A stretch of 32,000 bases of DNA from assembly GCA_963662715.1 (NCBI GenBank), contig OY759724.1, positions 960,001-992,000 on the forward strand, given 5' to 3'. The stretch is from Candidatus Omnitrophota bacterium (lineage in GTDB: Bacteria; Omnitrophota; Gorgyraeia; Zapsychrales; JANLHA01). A program made the position numbers and the translations under genes. Below, piece after piece: positions 3,052-30,943 of the stretch (within the stretch, counting starts at the first letter, position 1; every line of letters begins with the position of its first letter). Below the pieces are notes generated by a model that was given only the letters and a program-made list of their open reading frames with translations, made no database searches and had not been told where the DNA came from.

Positions 3052-3353
3052 GATATATGATATGCGATATAAAAAATTTTTAAGCTGGTTCTTTAATCTA
3101 TACGGGATATAGGATTAGATATTTTTTTATCCTATTAGAATAAATATTTAATACAAAAGGCGTATTGTATATCCAATAAAGCGGTTTTGTCAAGCAATAT
3201 CCCGGCACTCACCCACACCAGGACACACTACCCCAGGATTTAGGCCAACAGGCGCGGAGCGGCTCAACCGGACCGGGCAGATTGCGACATCTTCGTGGAC
3301 ACCCTGAATAAAACGTGATATATTTTAGTGACTTAGGGAGATTCACGAAAAAA

Positions 3354-4529
3354 ATGCCCGTAAAATCCAAAAGAACAGCGCTATTCCTGCAGATAAGCCT
3401 TATCGTTTTGGGCCTCTCCTGCCCTGCCCCTGCCTCTACAGTCACCCTGGACCAGAAAAATCATCTTGTGGTCGACGGCGAGCCGTTTTTCCCGATCGGG
3501 ATGTATTCGGTGAAGCCTCCCACAGCTTTTGAGGAGCTGAAAAAGGCGGGATTCAACACCGTGCATTCGTATTCCATTGAACAGGAATACCTGCAGACTT
3601 ACTTAAACGAAGCAGAGAAGGAAGGGTTAAAGGCGGTTATCTTTCCGGGCACGAAAATTATGCTGGACGAATTCTACAGTATAGGCAAACTCATCCGGAG
3701 CGTGAAAAAATTTAAGGATTCCGGGGCCCTCCTCGTCTGGTATCTGCTGGACGAACCGGACCTGCGGAAGGTGCCCCCCTCCGAGGTTGAGAGGATGTAT
3801 GAAAAAATAAAAGCGGAAGACCCTCATCATCCAACCGGATTTGTCCTGGCCCGGACCAATAGGTTGGGACATTATGCGCCCTACACGGATATTGTCATGG
3901 TGGATCCGTTTCCGGTGCCGAGCGCGCCCTTAACCCGTGTTTCGGATGTTATCAGCAAAGCCCGGGCCGCGGTCGAGGACAAGAAACCGGTCTGGGCGGT
4001 GCTGCAGGCTTTCGGATATCAGGACGGCGCGCACCGGGGATGGGGGGCGGACCGGGAGCCGACCTGGGCCGAAGCACGGTGCATGACCTACCTTGCCATC
4101 GTGCACGGGGCTAAAGGGATTTTCTATTATGTCTATCACGGCAGCCAATATGATATTCAGTTGTCTCCGGGACATTGGCAAAACATTAAAAAGATCGCCG
4201 GGGAACTAGAGACCTTAACCCCGGTCCTGCTCGCCCCGGTCAACCCGGAGAAAATAGGCATGACAATTCTTGATGCGCCCGGAAAAGACATCAACGGGGA
4301 CCCGGCGGTTCATTTTATAATTAAAAAATACGGCGGGAAAAAATATCTGATTGCGGTGAATGTGATAAAGGAATCATTGAACGTGACGTTCAGTGATTTT
4401 GCAACGGATGCCGACAGCCTTCAGGTGCTTTTTGAAGACCGGGCCGTAGATGTTATTGAAGGTTCCTTTACCGATACCTTTGCCCCTTATGAAGTGCATA
4501 TTTATACCGCTAAACCATACACACGATGA
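3354..4529 (+). CDS. Secreted TIM-barrel glycosidase-like protein (family unassigned)
   Basis: Track ORF is 3315-4529. I prefer the ATG at 3354 because it yields a signal peptide (MPVKSKRTALFLQISLIVLGLSCPAPAST). Glycosidase-like layout: VVDGEPFFPIGMY, GFNTVHSY, WYLLDEPD (NEP/DEP-type acid-base position). It is divergent from the EPS export operon. Confidence 0.5.
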   Translation: MPVKSKRTALFLQISLIVLGLSCPAPASTVTLDQKNHLVVDGEPFFPIGMYSVKPPTAFEELKKAGFNTVHSYSIEQEYLQTYLNEAEKEGLKAVIFPGTKIMLDEFYSIGKLIRSVKKFKDSGALLVWYLLDEPDLRKVPPSEVERMYEKIKAEDPHHPTGFVLARTNRLGHYAPYTDIVMVDPFPVPSAPLTRVSDVISKARAAVEDKKPVWAVLQAFGYQDGAHRGWGADREPTWAEARCMTYLAIVHGAKGIFYYVYHGSQYDIQLSPGHWQNIKKIAGELETLTPVLLAPVNPEKIGMTILDAPGKDINGDPAVHFIIKKYGGKKYLIAVNVIKESLNVTFSDFATDADSLQVLFEDRAVDVIEGSFTDTFAPYEVHIYTAKPYTR

Positions 4530-4542
4530 AAGGCCTCCGGCA

Positions 4543-4597
4543 GGGACACTTCTCTCAGAACCTGATTAAATTCAACAAGATAGAGGGACCCGGTCCC
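4543..4597 (+). repeat. Solo copy of the 55-nt composite repeat (GGGACACTTCTC, 30-nt spacer, GGGACCCGGTCCC)
   Basis: GGGACACTTCTC at 4543-4554, a 30-nt spacer, and the 13-nt palindrome GGGACCCGGTCCC at 4585-4597. The architecture and spacing match the two ends of the transposase cassette at 19252-19991. By hand alignment the spacer matches the reverse complement of the left-end spacer at 22 of 30 positions. Confidence 0.8.
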
Positions 4598-5547
4598 TAT
4601 AATTCGGACAGATGTTTGATGCGCTTGAGCATATTCGGGTGCGTGCTCAGCATCTCCATGAATTTCTCGCTGGCCGACAGCTCAACACTCTTCCCCCTCA
4701 AAACCGCCAATTCATCCGGATCAATCGTCCCGCTCCTGTCCAAATCCAGTTCGCTCAGCTCCCGGATCTCATTCATGGCCCGGGAAGGATCGTTCACAAA
4801 AAACGCCTTAAACCCCTCGGCTTCTTTAATCGCCTGCTTACCGATACGGGCGGAACCGTAAACAAGTTTATAAAGCGCCGTGGCCATGGCCTCCGGACGG
4901 TTCCCCAGGGCGATCGACCCGCGGTCGGCAAAGTATTCCCGGATACGCGAAGCATAAAGTACCAGGAGATTTGTTATGAAGTAAAAAGCCAGGGCCGCCA
5001 GCCCCACCAGAGCGGCGTTGCCGCGGTCTCTCCTTCCTCCTCCGAAAAAAAGGAAGTGCCAAGCCAGCCGGTACATGATCATCGGGATAACGGATAAAAG
5101 GGTAATGGTCAGGACGTCCCTGTTCTTAAGATGGCTCACTTCATGGCCGATCACCGCCTGCAGTTCTTCCTCGTTCAGCAGACGCATAATGCCTTCGGTC
5201 ACGCATACCCGTCCGTCGTTGCGGCCGCGGCCGAAAGCAAAAGCGTTGGGGATATCGACCTGAGACACGCAAACCCGCGGCATGGGGATTTCCGCTTTCT
5301 GCGCCATGTCCCTGACCATGGCATACAAACGGGGGTACTCATGCTCCTCAACATACCGCACCTGCATCGACCATTCGACGATTTTAGGCCCGAGGAGATA
5401 TTGGATATACATTAAAACCAGAGAAAAGACAAAGTAGAGATAAAAACTGTTCATCCCCATTGTGGTGCCGATCACAACGATAACCGCATAGACAATGGAG
5501 AACAACACAGCCAGCAGCAGATACATTCTCATTTGCAGGAAAAACAT
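4597..5547 (-). CDS. htpX: M48-family zinc metalloprotease HtpX homolog with an EF-hand-like insert
   Basis: N-terminal TM helices, HEVSHL zinc motif, SRIREYFAD third-ligand region and C-terminal STHPNMLKRIKHL. GGAGG lies 5 nt upstream of the ATG. Confidence 0.85.
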   Translation of the reverse strand: MFFLQMRMYLLLAVLFSIVYAVIVVIGTTMGMNSFYLYFVFSLVLMYIQYLLGPKIVEWSMQVRYVEEHEYPRLYAMVRDMAQKAEIPMPRVCVSQVDIPNAFAFGRGRNDGRVCVTEGIMRLLNEEELQAVIGHEVSHLKNRDVLTITLLSVIPMIMYRLAWHFLFFGGGRRDRGNAALVGLAALAFYFITNLLVLYASRIREYFADRGSIALGNRPEAMATALYKLVYGSARIGKQAIKEAEGFKAFFVNDPSRAMNEIRELSELDLDRSGTIDPDELAVLRGKSVELSASEKFMEMLSTHPNMLKRIKHLSEL

Positions 5548-14748: not shown

Positions 14749-14857
14749 AAATAAATTATCTGTCCTTGGTTAACAGTGTAAAAATGGATGACTGTGGGAT
14801 AATAATTATCAGGGGAAAGCTGGGGAAGAATAATGGGGAGAATGAAATATTGATAAA

Positions 14858-14885
14858 ATTTTATCAAAAAAGGCCTGATTGTCAA
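14858..14885 (-). promoter_or_regulatory. Candidate sigma70 promoter for comEA-comEC
   Basis: On the minus strand: TTGACA (14880-14885), a 16-nt spacer, and an extended -10 TGaTAAAAT (-10 hexamer at 14858-14863). The -10 lies inside the perfect 16-nt palindrome TGATAAAATTTTATCA (14851-14866). Confidence 0.55.
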
Positions 14886-14907
14886 TTTTTTTCAACAGAG
14901 CTGTTTT

Positions 14908-14947
14908 CCAAAAAATAGAAGAGACAGCCCGTAACCGGGCTGCCTCT
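14908..14947 (-). terminator. Rho-independent terminator downstream of the TRL lipoprotein gene
   Basis: On the minus strand: AGAGGCAGCCCG-GTTA-CGGGCTGTCTCT, a 12-bp stem with one G-U pair, followed by TCTATTTTTTGG. On the + strand the same position is an A-C mismatch, which favours function on the minus strand. Confidence 0.75.
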
Positions 14948-14970
14948 TTTATACCTGATACGGCTTTCAG

Positions 14971-15273
14971 TTACTCCCCATAAGCGACAACACACTGCTG
15001 GGCGAATAAAATGTAATTGCTGTATTTTTGATCTACAACGTTGACTTTGGAAATACCTGCACTGGCTGCTGCGTCAACCACAGATGCATTTCCGAACGGA
15101 CCCAAAAGCCCTAAAACATAAAGCTGGCAGGATTCACCCTGTTTCATGGTTTCAGAAAAATCTGTCGACTGAAGATCGGTGGAGTTGATGACCGGCGTCC
15201 ACAACGTCGTACATCCAACAAGCCCCATTCCGACAAGACATAAAACCAATAATTTAATACCAACTTTTCTCAT
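14971..15273 (-). CDS. TRL-like family lipoprotein
   Basis: Lipobox MRKVGIKLLVLCLVGMGLVGCTT. TRL-like core: GESCQLYVLGLLGPFGNASVVDAAASAGISKVNVVDQKYSNYILFAQQCVVAYGE. AGGAGG-type SD (aaaaGGAGGcagtATG). Confidence 0.7.
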   Translation of the reverse strand: MRKVGIKLLVLCLVGMGLVGCTTLWTPVINSTDLQSTDFSETMKQGESCQLYVLGLLGPFGNASVVDAAASAGISKVNVVDQKYSNYILFAQQCVVAYGE

Positions 15274-15371
15274 ACTGCCTCCTTTTGTGATTTTTATGAT
15301 TTATCTATCCTGCTTAGTCTTAAAGCTTTTATAAAGATGAACGCGCCGCGCACCCGGGATAGGATATTATT

Positions 15372-15399
15372 GTTATAATACAAATTAATTTTTTAGCAA
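15372..15399 (-). promoter_or_regulatory. Possible sigma70 promoter for the TRL gene
   Basis: On the minus strand: TTGCTA (15394-15399), a 16-nt spacer, TATAAC (15372-15377). The same DNA reads TGtTATAAT on the + strand (TATAAT at 15374-15379), so the orientation is ambiguous. Confidence 0.3.
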
Positions 15400-15650
15400 T
15401 AGGATAATACTGCCTAAAGTTGACCTTTTTTGACATCTATCCGGGAATCTCACGTAGAACACTCGCTATAAGAAACCGCAAGAATGCACAACAGTCATTT
15501 CTTATGTCGTATATTATGCGTTTAGCCAATTCAAAAGTCAAGACCTTCAGTCATATGTTTACTAAGAAAATAACAACGACTTTGTTTAAGCATTCGCTTA
15601 AACACTAATGAAGATATAAACAAAAATGGACATTCTGATGCTTAAATCGG

Positions 15651-17777
15651 CTACGGCAATTCAATTTTAAATGCGGTACCCGTCCCTAACTGACTCGTCA
15701 CGGATATTTTGCCTCTATGCTCCCGGATGATATTATACGTATTGATCAAACCCAAACCGATGCCTTCCTTTTTTGTGGTATAAAATGGAGTGAACAAATT
15801 TTTCTGCTGCTCTTCAGACATGCCGCATCCCGTATCAGAGACAATAATCTGGTAGCGGGTATCTTGCAGCGAGGAATCCTCTGATGGTTTTTGCTTTAAA
15901 GCCGTCTGAACAGTTAATGTGCCTTCTTCCTCCATCGCCTGCACGGCATTTAATATCAAATTTATCAACGCCTGCCGCATCTGGTCGGTATCCACGGGGA
16001 CAGCTTCATGCAGTGCATAGCTTCTCTTCACCACGATCCGTTTGATCTCCAAATGATCGTTCAGAAGATCCAAGACCGAATCAATGAGCTCGTTCATATT
16101 TTTTTCTTTAAAATGCAAATGTACCGGCCTCGCCAGCTTAAGCAATTTATTCAATAAGCGCTCAATGCGTTCCATCTCTCGGGGAATCAAGGCATGGAAT
16201 TTTTCCCGAAAACCGTTTTCATGATACTTTAACGGGAGATACTCCATATACGTCTTAATCGCTGTCAAAGGATTCCGGATTTCATGAAACACTGAACTCG
16301 CCAACTGCCCGACATACGCCAGCTTCTCGGCTTGAAACAACTTTTCATGAGTGCGTTTAATATCATCATAAAACTGGGCATTTTCAATGGCCAGGGCCGA
16401 CTGGTTCGCCAACATCATAAACACGTGGAGATCATCCACGTTGAACGGCTTCCCGGAATTTTTATTACCCACAACAAGAACCGCGATCATTCTTTCATCC
16501 AAAAACATCGGGACAACCAGCTGTCCATTCATCTCTTCCATCTGGCAAATGACGTCCGTTAATGAATCATGCGTATCGTTGGCCAGCTGCCTTATCTCTT
16601 CCAATACAATTGGTCCACGCATTCTCAATAAATATTTAACCAGAGAAGAATCAAACGGCACATTTTGCACGACATCAGACAAAACCTCTTGAGGCTGGCT
16701 GACTCTAAAAGAATGTGTTTGTTCATGGCCAAGATAAATCCGGCAACTGGCTATGCGAACCTCTTCTTTAATAATACTTATAATATGCTCCAACAATTTA
16801 TTTAAATCCTTAATCCGGCCCATTTCCATGGATGCAGTACGCAACGTGGCTTGATAGCGCCGCTGCTCCTGAAACAGCCGGGCTTCCGCCTGCTTCTGAA
16901 TGTAAAGATAAACAAAAGGGCCGCCCGTGGCAAATAAGGCCATGCAAAATAATGGCGCCATCCACCAATCATCACCCAGCATGATACGTAATTTCTCCTG
17001 CCATCCAAAGGCAAGCAAAAAAGGTGTCCCAAGGATAAATGAATAAACAGCGATGAATATGGATGTACGGGTGATAACAACGGAAATGTCCATGAGGCGA
17101 AATTTGACAATACTATAAACAATAATACACATAAAAATTGTTGCGGGGATGAACCCAAGCGGAATGATACTAATACCATAATTGGGAATAAAATCTATAG
17201 AATTAATCGTAAAAATGCTAAAAGCAAACAGTATGTACTTAAGCTGTTCCTTGCGAATTGTGGGGCCTATCTTTTTCTTTTTAACAAAAGCCAAAGCAAT
17301 GTAAATCGAAGCCGCATTAACCAATCCGAAAAAATACAATAGGAACATTGGATGAGCCTTCCCGGCCCTGGGGTATCGCCCCCAGGAAAAAATATTAAGA
17401 CCATCAATGAGAATGTTGGAATTTAAAAGAATGATTACGAGAAGACCTCCTATCAGATAATTAAGGATCGAATATTCATACATCCTTTTTAACTTCAAAA
17501 AACACATTGCAAAATGAAAATATGTGATGGAGATAAAAATGACTCCAACATACCCAAGTTTAAACCAAAAAAGGGCCGTTCCGGCATCAACGGTCTTATA
17601 GGCTATGGAATAATTCAAACACCACACGGCAGCGCTCAGACAAACCAGAGAAAAGGAAATATTTACGGGGGATTTGGAATTTTTTATTATAAGGAAAGCC
17701 GCTAATGATATGAATAACAAAAAAGTTATTAAAGTGGTTAAAGATAATATATTCGCTAAGTTGCCTATCATGATCAA
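15651..17777 (-). CDS. Sensor histidine kinase (N-terminal multi-TM sensor, GAF-like domain, HisKA, HATPase_c)
   Basis: About 7 N-terminal TM helices. H-box ASSVFHEIRNPLTAI, N box LINLILNAVQAM, G boxes DTGCGM and GIGLGL. The track start 17777 is TTG; an in-frame ATG lies at 17771. Confidence 0.85.
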   Translation of the reverse strand: MIMIGNLANILSLTTLITFLLFISLAAFLIIKNSKSPVNISFSLVCLSAAVWCLNYSIAYKTVDAGTALFWFKLGYVGVIFISITYFHFAMCFLKLKRMYEYSILNYLIGGLLVIILLNSNILIDGLNIFSWGRYPRAGKAHPMFLLYFFGLVNAASIYIALAFVKKKKIGPTIRKEQLKYILFAFSIFTINSIDFIPNYGISIIPLGFIPATIFMCIIVYSIVKFRLMDISVVITRTSIFIAVYSFILGTPFLLAFGWQEKLRIMLGDDWWMAPLFCMALFATGGPFVYLYIQKQAEARLFQEQRRYQATLRTASMEMGRIKDLNKLLEHIISIIKEEVRIASCRIYLGHEQTHSFRVSQPQEVLSDVVQNVPFDSSLVKYLLRMRGPIVLEEIRQLANDTHDSLTDVICQMEEMNGQLVVPMFLDERMIAVLVVGNKNSGKPFNVDDLHVFMMLANQSALAIENAQFYDDIKRTHEKLFQAEKLAYVGQLASSVFHEIRNPLTAIKTYMEYLPLKYHENGFREKFHALIPREMERIERLLNKLLKLARPVHLHFKEKNMNELIDSVLDLLNDHLEIKRIVVKRSYALHEAVPVDTDQMRQALINLILNAVQAMEEEGTLTVQTALKQKPSEDSSLQDTRYQIIVSDTGCGMSEEQQKNLFTPFYTTKKEGIGLGLINTYNIIREHRGKISVTSQLGTGTAFKIELP

Positions 17778-17822
17778 AGATTCAAAAAACAGGGCCGGGG
17801 GACAACCCCTTTATAATCCTTT

Positions 17823-19232
17823 CTAAAAATAGCACATGTCATTGGGGAAGCTGACGTGAAAATTAACCGTCATAACTTTTGCAAGACTGACGCACAAAAA
17901 CAATACAAACAGGACAAAGCTGACGGCCCGGGCTTGCGTGTCTTTGATGTCTTGAATTCGTTCAAAAACCCTGAACATGGCAAAAGCCGCCAATATCATT
18001 AACAATGGTAAAACCATCAGGACGTACCGGGACTGATAATTCCCGTATAAAGAAAAAAACAGGAAAGAAAGCAGCCCGGTCAGTTCGACAAAAAGAATCC
18101 GGGGAGTTTTCTTTATTAAAGAGGAGAGAAAAAATGCCAGATAGGACAATATATAGAACAATGAAAATCCCGGCAATCTTTTCAGGTAAAAAAACACTCC
18201 TCCCTCCCGGCTGAAGGTGTACCGGTTCCAGGATGTTTCAGGGAAGTGAGAGAAAGACAAGCTGGACATAACGGGTTGGAACAATAAATAAACAAGGACA
18301 AGAAGCAATCCTATACGAATCCGTTTAAGAGTCTGGGGTGTCAGCTGAAATTTTGAACGTATATGCCGGATGCACCCCTTTCCTTTCTCCGGGAAAAACA
18401 CGCATACGCCGAGAGCCGCACAAGAAAGAAAAATCACTGAAAAAACGGGAATTGTTAAATGAATGCCGTGTTTCGTGAATATATTCTTAAAAAATCCCAA
18501 ACCGTAAACATTCAAATTCCAGATGATCCAGGGGACCAGCATCACCCAGGGGATGGCAAGACTTAGACGAAAACAAGAATTTTCATGCCATTCTCTGTCG
18601 AACAGACTGACATAAAAAATCACCGCCGCACACATGAGGATTCCGGGGTATTTTGTCAACACGGCGAGGCCGATTGCAAATCCCCCCCATAAGAACAGCT
18701 TGGGCCTAGCGGTCAGAAAAGCCCGCGCATAAAAATATACGGCTAATAACGCAAAAAAGGCCAGGGTTGTATCCAGCCAGACTTTTTGAGAACAAATAAT
18801 AGAAACAGGATCAATCGCTATTAAAAAAGCCGATAACAATCCGACTTTATCCCCCCCCAATAAAGACCCCAACAGGAAAGTCAAAGGAATCAGAAGACAG
18901 CCGAAAAGCAAAGGGATTAAGACAACGGAAAAAGTCGCCTCCTTAAAAAGAACAAGGGATGTTGTCAGAAGATAGGAAAATAACGGGGGATGCTTAAAGA
19001 GCGGATCAAACAAATAGGGCAGAAGCTTGTCCCTATTCTTTGAGCGGCTGATGTATTTGTTCGTATTATAAATAAGAGGATTTTCCTTTAGCTGCAGGGC
19101 AATGCTGTAAAAGGCATTTTCATCAATTGTGACACGGTGTGTCTTTTTATGATTATAGAAATTGGTTAAACGAACCGAGAAAGACAGGCAGGTTAAACCA
19201 ATAATAAGAATCCAAATGCCTTTTTTATCCAT
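17823..19232 (-). CDS. GT-C fold glycosyltransferase, family 39 / ArnT-PMT-like
   Basis: 469 aa and polytopic (more than 10 TM helices). First-loop acidic motif VTIDENAFYS and the typical ArnT/PMT_2-like hydrophobic layout (LAVLTKYPGILM). The family call rests on architecture and remembered motifs. Confidence 0.6.
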   Translation of the reverse strand: MDKKGIWILIIGLTCLSFSVRLTNFYNHKKTHRVTIDENAFYSIALQLKENPLIYNTNKYISRSKNRDKLLPYLFDPLFKHPPLFSYLLTTSLVLFKEATFSVVLIPLLFGCLLIPLTFLLGSLLGGDKVGLLSAFLIAIDPVSIICSQKVWLDTTLAFFALLAVYFYARAFLTARPKLFLWGGFAIGLAVLTKYPGILMCAAVIFYVSLFDREWHENSCFRLSLAIPWVMLVPWIIWNLNVYGLGFFKNIFTKHGIHLTIPVFSVIFLSCAALGVCVFFPEKGKGCIRHIRSKFQLTPQTLKRIRIGLLLVLVYLLFQPVMSSLSFSHFPETSWNRYTFSREGGVFFYLKRLPGFSLFYILSYLAFFLSSLIKKTPRILFVELTGLLSFLFFSLYGNYQSRYVLMVLPLLMILAAFAMFRVFERIQDIKDTQARAVSFVLFVLFLCVSLAKVMTVNFHVSFPNDMCYF

Positions 19233-19251
19233 AAAATCCCCCCCCTCTTTA

Positions 19252-19306
19252 GGGACCGGGTCCCTTCATCTTATTGAATTATATCAGGTTACTACAGAAG
19301 TGTCCC
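19252..19306 (-). repeat. Left terminal copy of the 55-nt composite repeat
   Basis: GGGACCGGGTCCC at 19252-19264, a 30-nt spacer, and cAGAAGTGTCCC at 19295-19306 (the reverse complement of GGGACACTTCTg). It overlaps the last codons and the stop of the transposase gene. Confidence 0.8.
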
Positions 19307-19787
19307 CGTAATTATCTATTTCTATCAATTCAGGATTACAGCCCTTCTCCTTATACTGACGATAACTACTCCACAAATATTCATCTGCATTTTTTACAAT
19401 CCCCGCTTTCACTGGATTATTGTGGATGTATTCTAAACAGTCATGAATATAACTTTCTTCCTCAATAAGCCTGCACTGAAATCTTCCCTGCCAAACATGG
19501 CCAATATAATTCTCAAGTTTTCTATAATTGAAACTAAAAGATAATAATATTTTCTGCATGATACATGATATGTTGTGCCGCCTGTTTGCCTCAATAATCA
19601 TGTGCACATGGTTATCCATAATAACAATGCCATATAATTTGAAACCTAACTGCTTTTTATATTTATTTAATTTGTTAATAAAAAGTCTCTTAAAGTTATG
19701 ATCTTTAAAAATTTTTCTGCGGTTGTTACCTCGAGCCATGACATGATATACAGCATTATCATAGTAAATTCGTGCCATTCTTCCCAT
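19284..19787 (-). CDS. IS200/RayT-type tyrosine (Y1, HUH) transposase
   Basis: HUH motif in IVIMDNHVHMIIE and the catalytic-Tyr helix DCLEYIHNNPVKAGIV. 167 aa. N-terminus YYDNAVYHVMARGNNRRKIF is typical of the REP-associated/IS200-like transposase family (PF01797-like). GGAGA SD. Confidence 0.8.
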   Translation of the reverse strand: MGRMARIYYDNAVYHVMARGNNRRKIFKDHNFKRLFINKLNKYKKQLGFKLYGIVIMDNHVHMIIEANRRHNISCIMQKILLSFSFNYRKLENYIGHVWQGRFQCRLIEEESYIHDCLEYIHNNPVKAGIVKNADEYLWSSYRQYKEKGCNPELIEIDNYGDTSVVT

Positions 19788-19801
19788 GCATCTTCTCCTT
19801 T

Positions 19802-19839
19802 CAAAAAAAATACCCCTTGGATATTTATCCTTGGGGTAT
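19802..19839 (-). terminator. Terminator-like hairpin immediately upstream of the transposase RBS
   Basis: On the minus strand: ATACCCC-AA-GGAT-AAAT-ATCC-AA-GGGGTAT followed by TTTTTTTT, then GAAAGGAGAAGATGCATG (RBS and start). Confidence 0.5.
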
Positions 19840-19936
19840 TTATAATTATGCTGATTTATTATACCAAAATTAAAGATAGATGACGATTATTTGCTAAACG
19901 CTCTTTGAATTATTTAACAGCCCTCCTGTAGATTCG

Positions 19937-19991
19937 GGGACACTTCTCCCACAACCTTATATCGCACATAATGTTAAAGGGACCCGGTCCC
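19937..19991 (+). repeat. Right terminal copy of the 55-nt composite repeat
   Basis: GGGACACTTCTC at 19937-19948, a 30-nt spacer, and GGGACCCGGTCCC at 19979-19991. The palindrome encodes the last residues (GGTGSL) and abuts the stop of the anti-sigma/vWA ORF. Confidence 0.8.
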
Positions 19992-22091
19992 ACCTTTGAA
20001 TTGAATTCCGCCTTCACCATATCCTCCGCCATCTTCATAGTAAATATCCTCATCAACCCGACGGTCCAGCTGCTGTGCCCGCCTCACCAAGTCCAGAAAT
20101 TCCCCGCGGTAACCATAAGGATCTTCCCCCCCGGCGCGCGCCGCCTGCTCCAGAACATGATGATAAGAAGCCTGGCCTTTAAACTCGGAATTCCTCAACA
20201 GCAATCCGAATTCCGCCACCGCCGCGGCAAACTGAAAATCCCCCTGCGGCGTATCTGCCATCTCCCCACTCCGGATAGACTGCTGAATCAGCCGGCTTTT
20301 ATGGCCGTCCGGCTGCTTATACCGCAGTTTCACGGTCATCAAGTCCTGGCTTTCAACCACCTGGTTCTGCTGGTACACCAAATCATCAACAGACCGGAAC
20401 GTTTCCGTTGACTCTGCCGGCACAATTTCATAAAGGGCCGTGACCGTGTGTCCGGCTCCCAATTCCCCGGCGTCTTTCGTGTCATCGTTAAAATCCTCTT
20501 TGGCCAGCATACGGTTCTCATATCCGATCAGACGATACGCCTTCACCTGCCCGGGATTGAACTCCACCTGAATCTTGACATCCTTGGCAATCGTAAACAG
20601 CGTTGAACCCAATTCCTGAACAAGGACTTTCTGCGCTTCCCGGTCCGTGTCGATATAGTAGTAATTGCCGTTGCCCTTGTTCGCCAGCTGCTCCATTTTG
20701 GAATCTTTATAATTCCCCATTCCAAAACCCAAGACCGTCAAAAAGATCCCGTCCTGTCTTTTATCCTCTATCATGCGGACCAATTCCGCATTGCTGCTGA
20801 CCCCGACATTAAAATCTCCGTCAGTAGCAAGAATCACCCGGTTGTTGCCGCCCTTTATAAAATTCTGCTTCGCGATATTATAAGCCAGTTTGATGCCTGC
20901 CCCGCCCGCGGTTGAGCCGCCGGCCTGCAGCCGGTCGATCGCGGATAATATTTTCTGTTTATAATGGCCCGGGGTTGACTCCAAGACTTGCCCCGCGGCT
21001 CCGGCGTACACCACGATCGCAACCCGCTCTTCCCCGGTTAATTGCCTGACGAGCATTTTTAGAGAAGCCTTAAGCAAAGGAAGTTTGTTAGCGCTGTTCA
21101 TGGATCCTGACACATCGACCAGAAAAACAAGATTACTAGGAGGGATTTCCTCTTCCTGATAAACCTTTCCCTGCAGTCCTATTCTGACCAATTGATGCGC
21201 CCGGTTCCACGGGCAGGCCGCGCCGTTAATCGTTATAGAGAAGGGGTCTTCCCCTTCCGGCTGCGGATAGTCATAGGTGAAATAATTGACCAGTTCTTCA
21301 ATCCTGACGGCGTCTTCCGGAGGCAGTTGATTATTATTAAGGAAGCGTCGCATGTTGCTGTAGGACGCTGTATCCACATCAATGGAAAACGTGGAAAGAG
21401 GGTTTTCCTGCACCGCCATAAACTGGTTCTCATAAATCCGGTCATATTCTTCCGTATGGAAAGCCGGGTTATACCTCCAGGATTCATCTTCAGCTGCATC
21501 GCCGTCGCCCCCCCAGTATTCCTGTTCAACGCTGATAATTTTCGACGGCGCAAGTCCTCCGGCAGCCTTCTCCCTCGTCCTTGCCGGAGAGTGTCCTTCC
21601 GTTTTCGTTACCGAATAATCCGTGCTCAAATAATACGGTTCGTACTGCCGGGTCTTTTTTCCGGCTAACTGCTGATACGGCCCCGCCGAAGTCTTGCCTG
21701 CGCTGTACTGATCGCCGATATCATCCGAAGCGCTCCTGATACGCCCCTGGATGCTTCTTTGGGCATACATTTGCAGCGATAAAATACCTATGATCAATGT
21801 GGCTGCAACCCCGCCGCCAACCGTCATCTTGACAAATGAACTTCGTTTCATCCCTGTATCCTCCCTCATCCCTTTAGCAAGAGCACTCATGATCTCATTC
21901 TCCAGATCAGGGGACAGGTCTTCTTCGGGTAATACGTCCAAAGCCTGATTAAGATTCCGCAATTCTTTATAGTAGGCAGAACAGGACTCTGACTCCTTCA
22001 AAAGAGCCTCAACCTGACTTTTCTCTTGCTCATTGACCTCGCCATCAATATAACGGGAAATTAATTCTTTTAATTTTTCATGCTCGTTCAT
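19974..22091 (-). CDS. Anti-sigma factor N-domain + TM + YfbK-like von Willebrand A (MIDAS) extracytoplasmic domain fusion
   Basis: N-terminus LISRYIDGEVNEQEKSQVEALLKESESCSAYYKEL is an anti-sigma N-domain without a full HxxxCxxC. One TM helix (VGGGVAATLIIGILSLQMYA). vWA N-terminal-like region (LSTFSIDVDTASYSNMRRFL). MIDAS motif LVFLVDVSGSMNS, with TDGD further downstream. The long C-terminal region resembles YfbK/DUF3520. The start overlaps the ECF sigma stop (ATGA) and follows AAGGAGGAG. Confidence 0.75.
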   Translation of the reverse strand: MNEHEKLKELISRYIDGEVNEQEKSQVEALLKESESCSAYYKELRNLNQALDVLPEEDLSPDLENEIMSALAKGMREDTGMKRSSFVKMTVGGGVAATLIIGILSLQMYAQRSIQGRIRSASDDIGDQYSAGKTSAGPYQQLAGKKTRQYEPYYLSTDYSVTKTEGHSPARTREKAAGGLAPSKIISVEQEYWGGDGDAAEDESWRYNPAFHTEEYDRIYENQFMAVQENPLSTFSIDVDTASYSNMRRFLNNNQLPPEDAVRIEELVNYFTYDYPQPEGEDPFSITINGAACPWNRAHQLVRIGLQGKVYQEEEIPPSNLVFLVDVSGSMNSANKLPLLKASLKMLVRQLTGEERVAIVVYAGAAGQVLESTPGHYKQKILSAIDRLQAGGSTAGGAGIKLAYNIAKQNFIKGGNNRVILATDGDFNVGVSSNAELVRMIEDKRQDGIFLTVLGFGMGNYKDSKMEQLANKGNGNYYYIDTDREAQKVLVQELGSTLFTIAKDVKIQVEFNPGQVKAYRLIGYENRMLAKEDFNDDTKDAGELGAGHTVTALYEIVPAESTETFRSVDDLVYQQNQVVESQDLMTVKLRYKQPDGHKSRLIQQSIRSGEMADTPQGDFQFAAAVAEFGLLLRNSEFKGQASYHHVLEQAARAGGEDPYGYRGEFLDLVRRAQQLDRRVDEDIYYEDGGGYGEGGIQFKGGTGSL

Positions 22092-22669
22092 GACCGCTCC
22101 TCCTTAATGAAGGAAGCCAAATGCCCTCTTAATTGCTCTTTAGCCCGGAAAATAAGGATTTTCACTTTCTCTAAAGAGCAATTAAGAATGACACTGATCT
22201 GCTCATAACTCATCCCATGATACTGCCGCAGAACAATCGCCTCCTTATATTCAAAAGGAAGCTTCTCCAGGGCCTGTAGCACATGCCCGGTTAATTCCCT
22301 TCTGGCCATGTCTTCCCGCGACAGCTCCGCGGTATCAGGGGGATCCCATTCCTGAAACCCGTCTTGGCCGGAAGAATGAAAGAAAAGGGAAGTTAAAACT
22401 TTGCGCTTACGCATCCTGCTGACGCATTTGTTCCTCGCAATGGTGTATACCCAGGTGGAAAAACGGACGTTCCTGCCTGGATCATAGGTACAGTCCTCGA
22501 TTAAGATCGTAAAAACATCTCCGGTGATCTCTTCGGCATCGGCCCGGTTGCCTAAAAGACGCAGGCAGAAATTAAACATACGGGTTTTGTATCGCACATA
22601 AATCATACGGATCGCCTCACGATCGCCGGAAAGATATTCGGTTATAATTTGTTCGTCGGTTTTTTCCAT
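22088..22669 (-). CDS. ECF (group IV) sigma-70 family RNA polymerase sigma factor
   Basis: Region 2 (NRADAEEITGDVFTILIE, FSTWVYTIARNKC) and region 4 (LPFEYKEAIVLRQYHGMSYEQISVILNCSLEKVKILIFRAKEQLR). 193 aa. Translationally coupled to the anti-sigma gene. Confidence 0.9.
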   Translation of the reverse strand: MEKTDEQIITEYLSGDREAIRMIYVRYKTRMFNFCLRLLGNRADAEEITGDVFTILIEDCTYDPGRNVRFSTWVYTIARNKCVSRMRKRKVLTSLFFHSSGQDGFQEWDPPDTAELSREDMARRELTGHVLQALEKLPFEYKEAIVLRQYHGMSYEQISVILNCSLEKVKILIFRAKEQLRGHLASFIKEERS

Positions 22670-29636: not shown

Positions 29637-30545
29637 CTAAATATTTAACATCTTCAATTGCCTGGCTTGTATAAGAAAAATCTCCTTCAGCGACATTCCC
29701 TGAACATCGATGTGGGAGACAGACATCAGCTGTTTTCTGTACTGTTTCAGACTTTGCTTTTCCTCAAAAGCCGTATCCACGAAGCAGATAAAACGTCCCT
29801 CCCGCTGCGGGAGAAGCCATTCATCCGGATAATAGACATCTCCGCTCGGGTCTTGTTTTAACGTGACTGTTACGCGCTTGAAACGCTGCTGTAGAGATTC
29901 GGTCGTTTCGCTGAGCTTTAACTCTCCCTGATGAAGGAAACCGACCCAGTCGGCCAAACGCTCCACTTCCTCTATATCATGAGAGGAGATAAAAATGGTC
30001 CAGTCATCAGCCGCGGTCAGCTCCATGATCCCGTCCATAAGATCCTTGCGCGCGACCGGGTCCAGCCCGCTGAAAGGCTCATCAAGGATCAGTAATTTCG
30101 GCCGGTAGGCTAGGGAGGCAATCAGGGCCGCTTTCATTTTCATGCCCCGGGAAAGCGTGTCTATCCGGCCTTGCCGGGGAAGGTCAAATTGTTTCACCAG
30201 CCCCTGACAAAAAGCATGATCCCATTGCGGATACATCGACGAACAATAATTCATGAGTTCATCAACCGTCATGTCCTCCGGCAAAGCCTGATTTTCCGAC
30301 ACATAGCCGATCTGCCGGAATTCTTTGGGGCCGAGAGACCTGGAATCAAGGTCCCAAATGCGCGCCTGGCCTTTCGTCGGCGGCAGGATATTGACAAGGG
30401 TTTTAATGGTTGTGGTTTTTCCGGCGCCGTTGGGCCCCAGGTAAGCATAAATACTGCCGGCCGGGACTTTTAAGTTGAGTTGATTTAAAGCCACTGTCCT
30501 TCCGAACTTTTTTGTTAAATCCCTGGTTTCAATGACGTATTTCAT
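29637..30545 (-). CDS. ABC transporter ATP-binding protein
   Basis: Walker A GPNGAGKTTT, signature LSRGMKMK, Walker B LLILDEPFSGLD and H-loop SSHD. I prefer the start at ATG 30545 (MKYVIETRDL...), which overlaps the gntR stop as ATGA; the track gives 30581. Confidence 0.9.
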   Translation of the reverse strand: MKYVIETRDLTKKFGRTVALNQLNLKVPAGSIYAYLGPNGAGKTTTIKTLVNILPPTKGQARIWDLDSRSLGPKEFRQIGYVSENQALPEDMTVDELMNYCSSMYPQWDHAFCQGLVKQFDLPRQGRIDTLSRGMKMKAALIASLAYRPKLLILDEPFSGLDPVARKDLMDGIMELTAADDWTIFISSHDIEEVERLADWVGFLHQGELKLSETTESLQQRFKRVTVTLKQDPSGDVYYPDEWLLPQREGRFICFVDTAFEEKQSLKQYRKQLMSVSHIDVQGMSLKEIFLIQARQLKMLNI

Positions 30546-30943
30546 TTGTTTTCTTTCTTTTGATGGATATTCCATTGCCACTGGACCGCCTCCAGCAATT
30601 CTTTTTTGGATATTGAAAGACGTTTCGCTTCAATGACCAGACGTTCCACCTCATTGTGCAGCACCTCTTTGCGCTGTTCCTGATTGGCCAGGCTTAATTC
30701 CGAGACAACACTGCCGATGCCTGGTTTAATCTGCAGAAGCCGTTCGTTGACCAGATGCGTTACGACTTTCTGGGCCGTATTGGGATTGATACGCAGTTCC
30801 CGGCTCATTTCCCGTACAGAAGGGAACCGGTCCCCGGCTCTCAAACGTCCGGAGACGATGGATTTCTTTACGGCATAAATAACCTGTTCATAAATCGGAA
30901 CACCGGCTTTGAATGTTACGTTAAAATTAATCATCGGGCCCAA
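30542..30943 (-). CDS. GntR-family transcriptional regulator, YtrA-like subfamily
   Basis: Winged-helix domain VPIYEQVIYAVKKSIVSGRLRAGDRFPSVREMSRELRINPNTAQKVVTHLVNERLLQIKPGIGSVV with a short helical C-terminus. It is 133 aa and is followed by ABC genes, as in ytrA-type operons. Confidence 0.85.
   Translation of the reverse strand: MGPMINFNVTFKAGVPIYEQVIYAVKKSIVSGRLRAGDRFPSVREMSRELRINPNTAQKVVTHLVNERLLQIKPGIGSVVSELSLANQEQRKEVLHNEVERLVIEAKRLSISKKELLEAVQWQWNIHQKKENK

Follow-up and report, generated by a model that had tools for sequence, protein, structure and literature searches.

A probable TIRtron-type cassette in Candidatus Omnitrophota: a RayT-like transposase gene between long inverted repeats

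A Candidatus Omnitrophota genome (contig OY759724.1) carries, within the 32,000 nucleotides (nt) analysed here (positions 960,001 to 992,000 of the forward strand, henceforth the window, in whose own numbering coordinates are given), a small tyrosine transposase gene lodged between two inverted copies of a repeat unit, with a third copy of the unit standing alone elsewhere in the window. The gene product is related to RayT, the tyrosine transposase associated with repetitive extragenic palindromes (REPs), and the cassette probably belongs with the TIRtrons, in which such a gene, then called a TIRYT, lies between long terminal inverted repeats (TIRs). The features on which the argument turns are the following, R1 being a covariance model of the unit built from 41 units:

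19284..19787, minus strand: RayT/TIRYT-type HUH/Y1 tyrosine transposase gene, 167 amino acids (aa), with Pfam and NCBIfam matches
19935..19991, plus strand: right (upstream) unit, inner end CGGGGACACTTCT towards the RayT gene and outer end GGGACCCGGTCCC pointing outward; R1 59.9 bits, E=1.4e-11
19252..19308, minus strand: left (downstream) unit, inverted relative to the right unit; R1 55.0 bits
4543..4597, plus strand: solo unit; R1 57.9 bits

An earlier reading made from the sequence only had called the 167-aa protein a transposase of the RayT type, and domain models agree. Its sole Pfam domain is Y1_Tnp (PF01797, residues 11-124, E=2.6e-15); it passes the NCBIfam equivalog REP_Tyr_transpos (NF047646; 98 bits against a cutoff of 80) and fails the IS200 equivalog model (NF033573; 29.7 bits against a cutoff of 55). 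The HUH motif is formed by H60-V-H62 and the catalytic tyrosine is Y120 in YIHNNP; H60, H62 and Y120 are invariant in 21 homologues, and they align with the HMH motif and catalytic Tyr of E. coli TnpA_REP, the only relative with a solved structure (PDB 4ER8, E=9.4e-5). In pairwise comparison identity with the protein is 33% for the Pelobacter TIRYT pca3049 (E=1e-27) and 22% for the E. coli enzyme (b228, E=3e-10). The next-best relatives, 47-56% identical, come from metagenome-assembled genomes (MAGs) of Candidatus Omnitrophota, several of them having been named RayT by JGI. Among the open reading frames (ORFs) of the window, none adjacent to the RayT gene is tnpB-like.

The two longest inverted repeats that a repeat search returned for the window are the arms 19252-19308 and 19935-19991, 57 nt long and 74% complementary, and the pair 4543-4599 and 19250-19306, likewise 57 nt and 84% complementary. 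Each copy flanking the gene is delimited by two 13-mers (GGGACCGGGTCCC at 19252-19264 and AGAAGTGTCCCCG at 19296-19308; CGGGGACACTTCT at 19935-19947 and GGGACCCGGTCCC at 19979-19991), and the inverted pair of the sequence-only reading is indeed in place, although its measurements need correction: a spacer of 30 nt and a composite of 55 nt had been given, and the 13-mers are in fact 31 nt apart on each side (19265-19295 and 19948-19978), making a composite of 57 nt. The outer 13-mer is a 6+1+6 palindrome, the centre base of which differs between its two versions because one oriented sequence is being read on opposite strands. In unit orientation the left copy (reverse strand) reads CGGGGACACTTCTGTAGTAACCTGATATAATTCAATAAGATGAAGGGACCCGGTCCC, the solo copy CAGGGACACTTCTCTCAGAACCTGATTAAATTCAACAAGATAGAGGGACCCGGTCCC and the right copy CGGGGACACTTCTCCCACAACCTTATATCGCACATAATGTTAAAGGGACCCGGTCCC, and the similarity between them extends through the spacer, beyond the two 13-mers. 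Shuffled controls bear the repeats out: the palindrome pattern has three exact matches and one with a single mismatch in the window against 0.03 expected, and GGGACACTTCT has three against 0.33.

The outer end of the right unit supplies the final codons and stop of a VWA gene (19974-22091, minus strand). With its inner end the left unit reaches into the 3' part of the RayT ORF, whose last nine codons (..YGDTSVVT*) lie inside the unit, and the unit's outer end is placed 19 nt upstream of the ATG of a PMT_2 glycosyltransferase gene (17823-19232, minus strand). The solo unit occupies the gap between two convergent genes, a 404-aa ORF (3315-4529, plus strand) and htpX (4597-5547, minus strand). 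The one-mismatch palindrome, GGGAACCGGTCCC at 30822-30834, is probably a chance occurrence, since it lies inside an ORF (30542-30943), lacks the inner motif and gives no match to the covariance model run without filters. Rfam returned nothing credible in 18800-20400.

The nature of the repeat emerges from its relatives. We compared 22 Omnitrophota loci with homologous RayT genes (47-56% amino acid identity; L numbers are our labels for the loci and contigs compared), reading their flanks and scanning them by regular expression. By this expression and by R1 the unit was found on both sides of nearly all 22 genes (E-values 1e-9 to 1e-13), always as an inverted pair with one copy downstream and one upstream of the gene, and with GGGGACA invariably at the end nearer to it. 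The consensus, gGGGACA(C/G/T)TTCT..Cg.AAc.T..Tg.......a.aa..GTTA...aGAAACGGTCY, has a gene-proximal end (G)GGGACA(C/G)TTCT and an outer end (A)GAAACGGTCY, 31 nt apart, and measures 53 nt to GGTC in 39 of the 41 units. Because the same arrangement recurs at nearly all 22 loci, what the sequence-only reading took for a bipartite element, an outer palindrome joined to an inner repeat, is a single unit of constant length, of which the two 13-mers are the conserved ends, retained across the phylum. The perfect palindrome is real in the window but does not characterise the family: most relatives carry the non-palindromic outer end AGAAACGGTCY, of which GGGACCCGGTCCC (CGGACCAGGTCCC in L003/L007) is a lineage-limited variant.

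The start of the downstream unit varies from -26 to +22 nt relative to the RayT stop codon. Where the ORF runs into the unit, as in the window and in L002, L004, L005 and L022, the protein gains a '..GDTS..' tail; where the stop comes before it, GGGGACACTTC is non-coding, as in L003 (..RFEE* CCCGGGGACACTTC). Since the motif is coding in some loci and non-coding in others, it is conserved at the level of DNA and not of protein, and the C-terminal GDTS was rejected as a conserved protein feature. On both flanks in the window the inner motif, GGGGACAC, fits the sequence GGGGWSAS, as do 25 of the 41 units under strict matching (the two window flanks included) and 39 under relaxed matching; GT[AG]G occurs within the first 12 nt of the 5' end in one unit of the 41. 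Clostridial relatives of the enzyme, 250-280 aa long and tailed at the C-terminus, have on either side compact hairpins in inverted orientation, of the form GGGACAxx-GAGAACCGTCCC-xxTGTCCC.

In the RNAalifold consensus the two ends of the unit pair with one another, GGAC with GTCC and TCTx with xAGA. When a third helix (TAACC/GGTTA) is included, 82% of the cells are paired, as compared with 19-57% for slid partners. Covariation scores 0.173, and shuffled controls 0.138, with 1 of 500 shuffles reaching the observed value, and compensatory changes fall at three to four pairs. A robust local hairpin of the REP kind was rejected, the folds of single-stranded DNA (ssDNA) yielding only a stem of 5-6 bp with z-scores of +0.06 to -1.2; the 'structured' repeat of the sequence-only reading folds weakly and no better than its shuffles. 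We would ascribe to the unit, with moderate confidence, the form of a weak, interrupted hairpin whose two feet may be the recognition elements.

The distribution of the cassette would fit a domesticated gene. Among the 22 Omnitrophota matches listed there is one RayT locus per MAG. Both flanks are syntenic in the pairs L003/L007 and L005/L022, the RayT proteins of which are 74% and 60% identical, respectively; because the flanks are shared in these two species pairs despite such divergence of the transposase, long vertical residence, and not turnover as an insertion sequence (IS), is suggested. One further cassette (P0015) is present on eight contigs; in each of the four places shown, which come from different samples, its context is the same. 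The genomic context of the cassette differs among most MAGs.

Copies of the unit away from a RayT gene exist, and the dispersal proposed on the strength of the third copy at 4543-4597 holds: besides the solo copy in the window, a metagenome scan returned one contig only, L001, with three copies in 10 kb. One of these stands alone, and the other two form an inverted pair with no gene between them (1402-1635), whose inner ends face each other across a 122-nt, AT-rich and ORF-less spacer, an 'empty cassette' or REPIN-like dimer. Its unit at 1402-1458 is 92% identical to the upstream unit of L003, including about 10 nt of flank. A derivation of this pair from a cassette by deletion is unsupported; the units match, and the spacer is similar to no RayT cassette. 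When the GTDB genome collection was scanned for exact matches to the pattern of the full unit, none came up, and in about 150 kb around the homologues solo units beyond the two flanking copies came to one or two at most, L016 being the exception. Viral contigs yielded no RayT relative, and two pattern matches in them were rejected as chance (17-20 bits with the model, wrong spacing). The scarcity of solo copies suggests that mobilisation in trans would be rare or old.

Comparison with relatives that lack the cassette at this site brings the insertion junctions into view. Two of them, L082 (from a 3.35-Mb contig) and L083 (from a 219-kb contig), encode VWA proteins 73-76% identical to that of the window and are syntenic with it on both sides (tblastx); in both, comEA-comEC follow VWA after about 350 nt and the cassette is absent at this site. 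The window instead has the following:

14750..19991, no strand assigned: low-GC block of about 5.2 kb, comprising a TRL-like gene, a 7TM-GAF histidine kinase gene, the PMT_2 glycosyltransferase gene and, at its edge, the RayT cassette

The GC content of the block is 0.35-0.44 against about 0.50 around it. The cassette itself is, as had been claimed, richer in AT than its neighbours (GC 0.27-0.37, against 0.48-0.58 to the right and 0.37-0.48 to the left), yet it is no isolated island but the edge of this larger block. The block shows no match to the 350-nt VWA-comEA spacer of L082/L083, and no second unit was found at its far edge, even without filters. Homology of the VWA gene with L082/L083 stops exactly at the outer end of the right unit: there the gene ends ..ATT CAG TTT AAA GGC CGG CGC TGA (..IQFKGRR*), whereas in the window it ends ..ATT CAA TTC AAA GGT GGG ACC GGG TCC CTT TAA (..IQFKGGTGSL*). 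At the solo unit, the htpX stop codon TAG consists of TA and the first G of the palindrome, and the C-terminus of HtpX is 1-6 residues (in most comparisons 2-4) shorter than in 11 homologues. A search of the nearest genomes for an empty htpX site came to nothing, HtpX being too conserved to single these genomes out, and only the C-terminal comparison was usable. The VWA and htpX genes thus appear to have had units attached immediately to their 3' ends, and the cassette appears to mark the junction of a 5.2-kb low-GC insertion in this genome.

A further observation concerns the outer ends themselves. Tandem repeats (period at least 8) stand within 25 nt of an outer end in 8 of 27 cases in 169 kb of Omnitrophota loci, where about 0.4-0.65 would be expected (binomial P ~1.6e-7). 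The duplicated blocks begin immediately after GGTC(C), are 8-31 nt long and are present in 2-6 copies; in L008, for example, GGTC is followed by TTAATGTTTTT twice, in L010 by TTGGGAGGCT five times and in L014 by TTTGGCTATT three times. The outer-end tandem duplications are located as follows:

L003, 2795-2819
L004, 3536-3565
L006, 2893-2945 and 3508-3531
L008, 1684-1707
L010, 218-279
L014, 1940-1969 and 2659-2692
L016, 3515-3576

The window's own units have no outer-end tandem duplication, and that of L003 showed no variation between samples. In 28 of the 41 units, T is the first base other than C to follow GGTC; E. coli TnpA_REP cuts ssDNA at C^T and assembles tandem copies by strand transfer in vitro (PMC3333891).

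We put at roughly three in four the probability that the locus is a TIRtron-type cassette, that is, a single-copy, apparently vertically inherited, short-form TIRYT between two inverted cognate repeats of about 55 nt. By analogy with E. coli TnpA_REP and with IS608 TnpA, the enzyme would bind the folded unit on ssDNA and nick it at the C^T just past GGTC(C) at the outer end, forming a 5'-phosphotyrosine with Y120. Rejoining of strands would occasionally copy units to new intergenic sites, singly or in pairs, and would also generate the local tandem duplications, with the RayT gene itself staying in place between its two units.

Several observations weigh against this reading. The support from covariation is weak because most paired columns never vary, and the ssDNA folds of the window's units are no stabler than their shuffles. 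Solo units are scarce: there are three units of any kind in the 32-kb window, even without filters, and the closest relatives contribute none in 66 kb. The Omnitrophota proteins are cores of 163-170 aa that lack the C-terminal helix-turn-helix (HTH)-like tail of TnpA_Y1 subclass 2.1, the class of the TIRYTs. The position of the cassette at the edge of an acquired low-GC block would fit horizontal arrival as well as long residence. Finally, we know of no TIRYT that has been biochemically characterised, and both the cleavage site and the strand are assigned by analogy.

A bolder proposal, about which we are doubtful, is that the geometry of the unit, the duplications that follow GGTC(C) and the exact joints with genes would together pinpoint the C^T at which a TIRYT cuts and joins in vivo, and that RayT relatives devoid of REPs would be active genome editors that clip genes and seed or border islands.

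The strongest rival, improbable as we judge it, is an autonomous IS, in which unit, gene and unit move as a whole and which would be a relative of IS200/IS605 with acquired inverted ends, the solo copies having arisen by decay or by one-ended events. Such an element would account for the lack of the cassette at this site in the two closest relatives and for its place at the edge of the low-GC insertion, for a context that varies among most MAGs and for a VWA junction exact to the outer end of the unit. It sits poorly with one locus per MAG among the 22 matches listed, with flanks conserved in two species pairs despite 60-74% RayT identity and with the unchanged context of the P0015 cassette in four of four places shown. 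Nor would one expect of it a protein below the IS200 equivalog cutoff, inverted ends where those of IS200/IS605 are not inverted and have both hairpins on the same strand (PMC3333891), or the lack of relatives in viral contigs.

Less probable still is that the unit is in essence a regulatory or structural element of the host, namely a terminator, an mRNA-stabilising hairpin, an outward promoter or an operator for RayT autoregulation, its link with the transposase being regulatory; REPs are known to influence termination and mRNA stability. Units do lie directly after gene 3' ends (VWA, htpX and the L001 ORF 335-1381), and in four the outer end lies 19-20 nt before a start codon, leaving just the space for a ribosome-binding site (RBS): the left unit of the window, two units of L001 (at 4175 and 1635; regions 4163-4195 and 1623-1656) and the upstream unit of L003 (region about 2025-2051). 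The left unit also contains, at 19278-19306 on the minus strand, a promoter-like GGGACA-17-TGATATAAT with a TG, directed at the PMT_2 gene; its -10 box (TATAAT) is not conserved in other units, and the units match no Rfam family. Regulation of this kind leaves unexplained the coding ends that are clipped relative to orthologues, the inverted pair around a transposase gene across the phylum and the tandem duplications at outer ends. Regulatory and transpositional roles of the unit are not mutually exclusive. Chance or composition as the source of the flanking similarity, to which only the short stems and non-significant folding z-scores would lend colour, is refuted by the shuffles (0.03 and 0.33 expected against three observed for each motif) and by the recurrence of the unit in the same position in 22 independent genomes (E 1e-9 to 1e-13).

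Upstream of the RayT gene, between its start codon and the right unit, the window holds two predicted elements of expression:

19858..19886, minus strand: promoter-like sequence directed at the RayT gene, TCGTCA-17 nt-TATAAT with a TG upstream; consensus scan only, 10/12 matches
19803..19841, minus strand: terminator- or attenuator-like hairpin with a U8 tract after it, in the leader of the RayT gene, downstream of the promoter-like sequence and ahead of the RBS

The leader hairpin has a predicted RNA folding energy of -17.4 kcal/mol (z=-3.2; 2 of 200 shuffles fold equally well) and could be an attenuator of RayT expression or a terminator of the upstream sigma-VWA operon. In the majority clade (L003, L007-L012, L014, L015, L017 and L019-L021) a motif GTTAGA(A/T)(A/T)TT ... 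CGTCTATTA is found 20-60 nt before the RayT start codon, between the upstream unit and the ATG, and could serve as a common promoter or operator; in the window it is present in a loose version only (GTTTAGC...CGTCATCTATC).

The neighbourhoods of the cassettes offer some further observations. A gene for an RHS-repeat protein lies directly upstream of the cassette in four MAGs (L002 953-2596, L004 1-2217, L016 3-2456 and L056 646-1737; the proteins are 37-52% mutually identical), and in L005/L022 the upstream gene is dnaE. L018 has a second, divergent Y1 gene (1537-2130, about 30% identical) some 900 nt upstream of its RayT cassette, as well as (GTCACAAG)n arrays about 120-390 nt downstream of the cassette (3670-3745 and 3842-3879). 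L082 carries at 18872-22133 an unrelated type I restriction-modification cluster (HsdM_N, N6_Mtase, Methylase_S) that has a gene with a SduA_C (Shedu-like) domain in its midst. In the window as a whole (1-32000) the cumulative GC skew declines steadily and almost all long ORFs lie on the minus strand, which for these two reasons is probably the leading strand.

No group of domesticated Y1 transposases is larger or more widespread than the TIRYT or subclass 2.1 RayT-like enzymes, whose DNA substrates are poorly defined. Together with its 22 relatives the present locus supplies a substrate that aligns cleanly, 53 nt long and conserved at both ends, along with a candidate cleavage position and natural before-and-after sites in the VWA and htpX genes and their orthologues. 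It extends the family to Candidatus Omnitrophota, and is otherwise an ordinary member of a kind of element that already has a name.

Among known systems, the REPtron (Nunvar 2010; Ton-Hoang 2012, PMC3333891; structure 4ER8) is the one to which the cassette had been likened. Part of that comparison stands, an apparently single-copy, domesticated Y1 enzyme lying between inverted cognate repeats, copies of which are scattered in intergenic DNA; the protein passes REP_Tyr_transpos, C^T occurs at the likely cut site and tandem amplification is seen nearby. The differences are nevertheless considerable. A canonical REP is an imperfect palindrome of 20-40 nt with a 5' GT[AG]G foot, which is here confined to 1 of 41 units, and forms a robust hairpin, whereas the unit described here has 53-57 nt and weak, interrupted pairing; the copy number is apparently low and protein identity reaches only 22%. 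Since the foot is wanting and solo copies are rare, the cassette is not a canonical REPtron. The gene-less pair of L001 (1402-1635) invites comparison with the REPIN, a doublet of inverted REPs that a RAYT mobilises (Bertels and Rainey 2011, PMC3116915), and RayT genes bear the same repeats as the pair; its 122-nt spacer is, however, unconserved, its units stand inner end to inner end and no population of doublets has been demonstrated.

The IS200/IS605 elements, with IS608 and ISDra2, share the HUH/Y1 core (Pfam Y1_Tnp) and the hairpin-guided single-strand chemistry to be expected of it. Their ends are not inverted repeats, both hairpins being on one strand (PMC3333891), while the ends here are inverted; they are multi-copy and often accompanied by tnpB, while the gene here is apparently single-copy, without tnpB and below the IS200 equivalog cutoff. 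There may also be a resemblance to TnpA_Y1 subclass 2.6 (Bertels group 5; Bacteroidetes), with fitting motif strings and a similar length, as likened here by its published description: in PMC6006769 its enzymes have the motifs NH[LIV]H, WQ and YIH[QN]NP, a median length of 179 aa and an insertion of about 21 aa between alphaC and beta4, and its genes have unusual secondary structures on their flanks, copies of which occur at other places in the genome.

It is the TIRtron that accommodates most of what we see. The layout is not unprecedented: Di Nocera et al. (2013, BMC Genomics 14:522; PMC3733652) describe RAYT-like genes with long terminal inverted repeats in place of GTAG REPs, which they named TIRtrons and the genes TIRYTs; GGGGWSAS is common to many of the TIRs and lies about equally far from the gene, some TIRs reach into its 3' end, and the TIR families are moderately abundant and often occur as dimers. 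The present cassette has each of these traits: an HUH/Y1 gene between long inverted repeats (57 nt, 74% complementary) instead of GTAG REPs, GGGGWSAS (here GGGGACAC) whose distance to the gene is conserved, a repeat that overlaps the gene's 3' end, and a repeat family low to moderate in abundance, with units occurring singly and as dimers. Its protein has the signature RGNNR / NHVH / GHVWQGRF / Y-x3-NP / WSS and the 33% identity to pca3049. In the parts of Quentin et al. (2018; PMC6006769) used here, TIRYTs are equated with TnpA_Y1 subclass 2.1 and Bertels group 1 and given the same consensus; no REP-like sequences are reported beside their genes, and the proteins, with a median of 238 aa, have an extra conserved HTH-like domain at the C-terminus. 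Bertels et al. (2017) found the 16-mers flanking group 1 genes to be modestly repeated, with 12 occurrences. The Omnitrophota are absent from the host phyla named in the TIRtron descriptions as far as drawn on, and the same portions of PMC3733652 and PMC6006769 do not mention tandem duplications at outer ends or clipped gene ends; the unit here has, in addition, a fixed length of 53 nt and a further conserved end, GAAACGGTCY, that this lineage has turned into a perfect palindrome. Because the inner motif fits GGGGWSAS, the GT[AG]G foot is missing and identity is 33% to pca3049 against 22% to the E. coli enzyme, the cassette appears to be of the TIRtron type. The layout is thus a known one, published in 2013, and what is new is the example from the Omnitrophota, the tail-less form of the enzyme and the long unit of fixed length.

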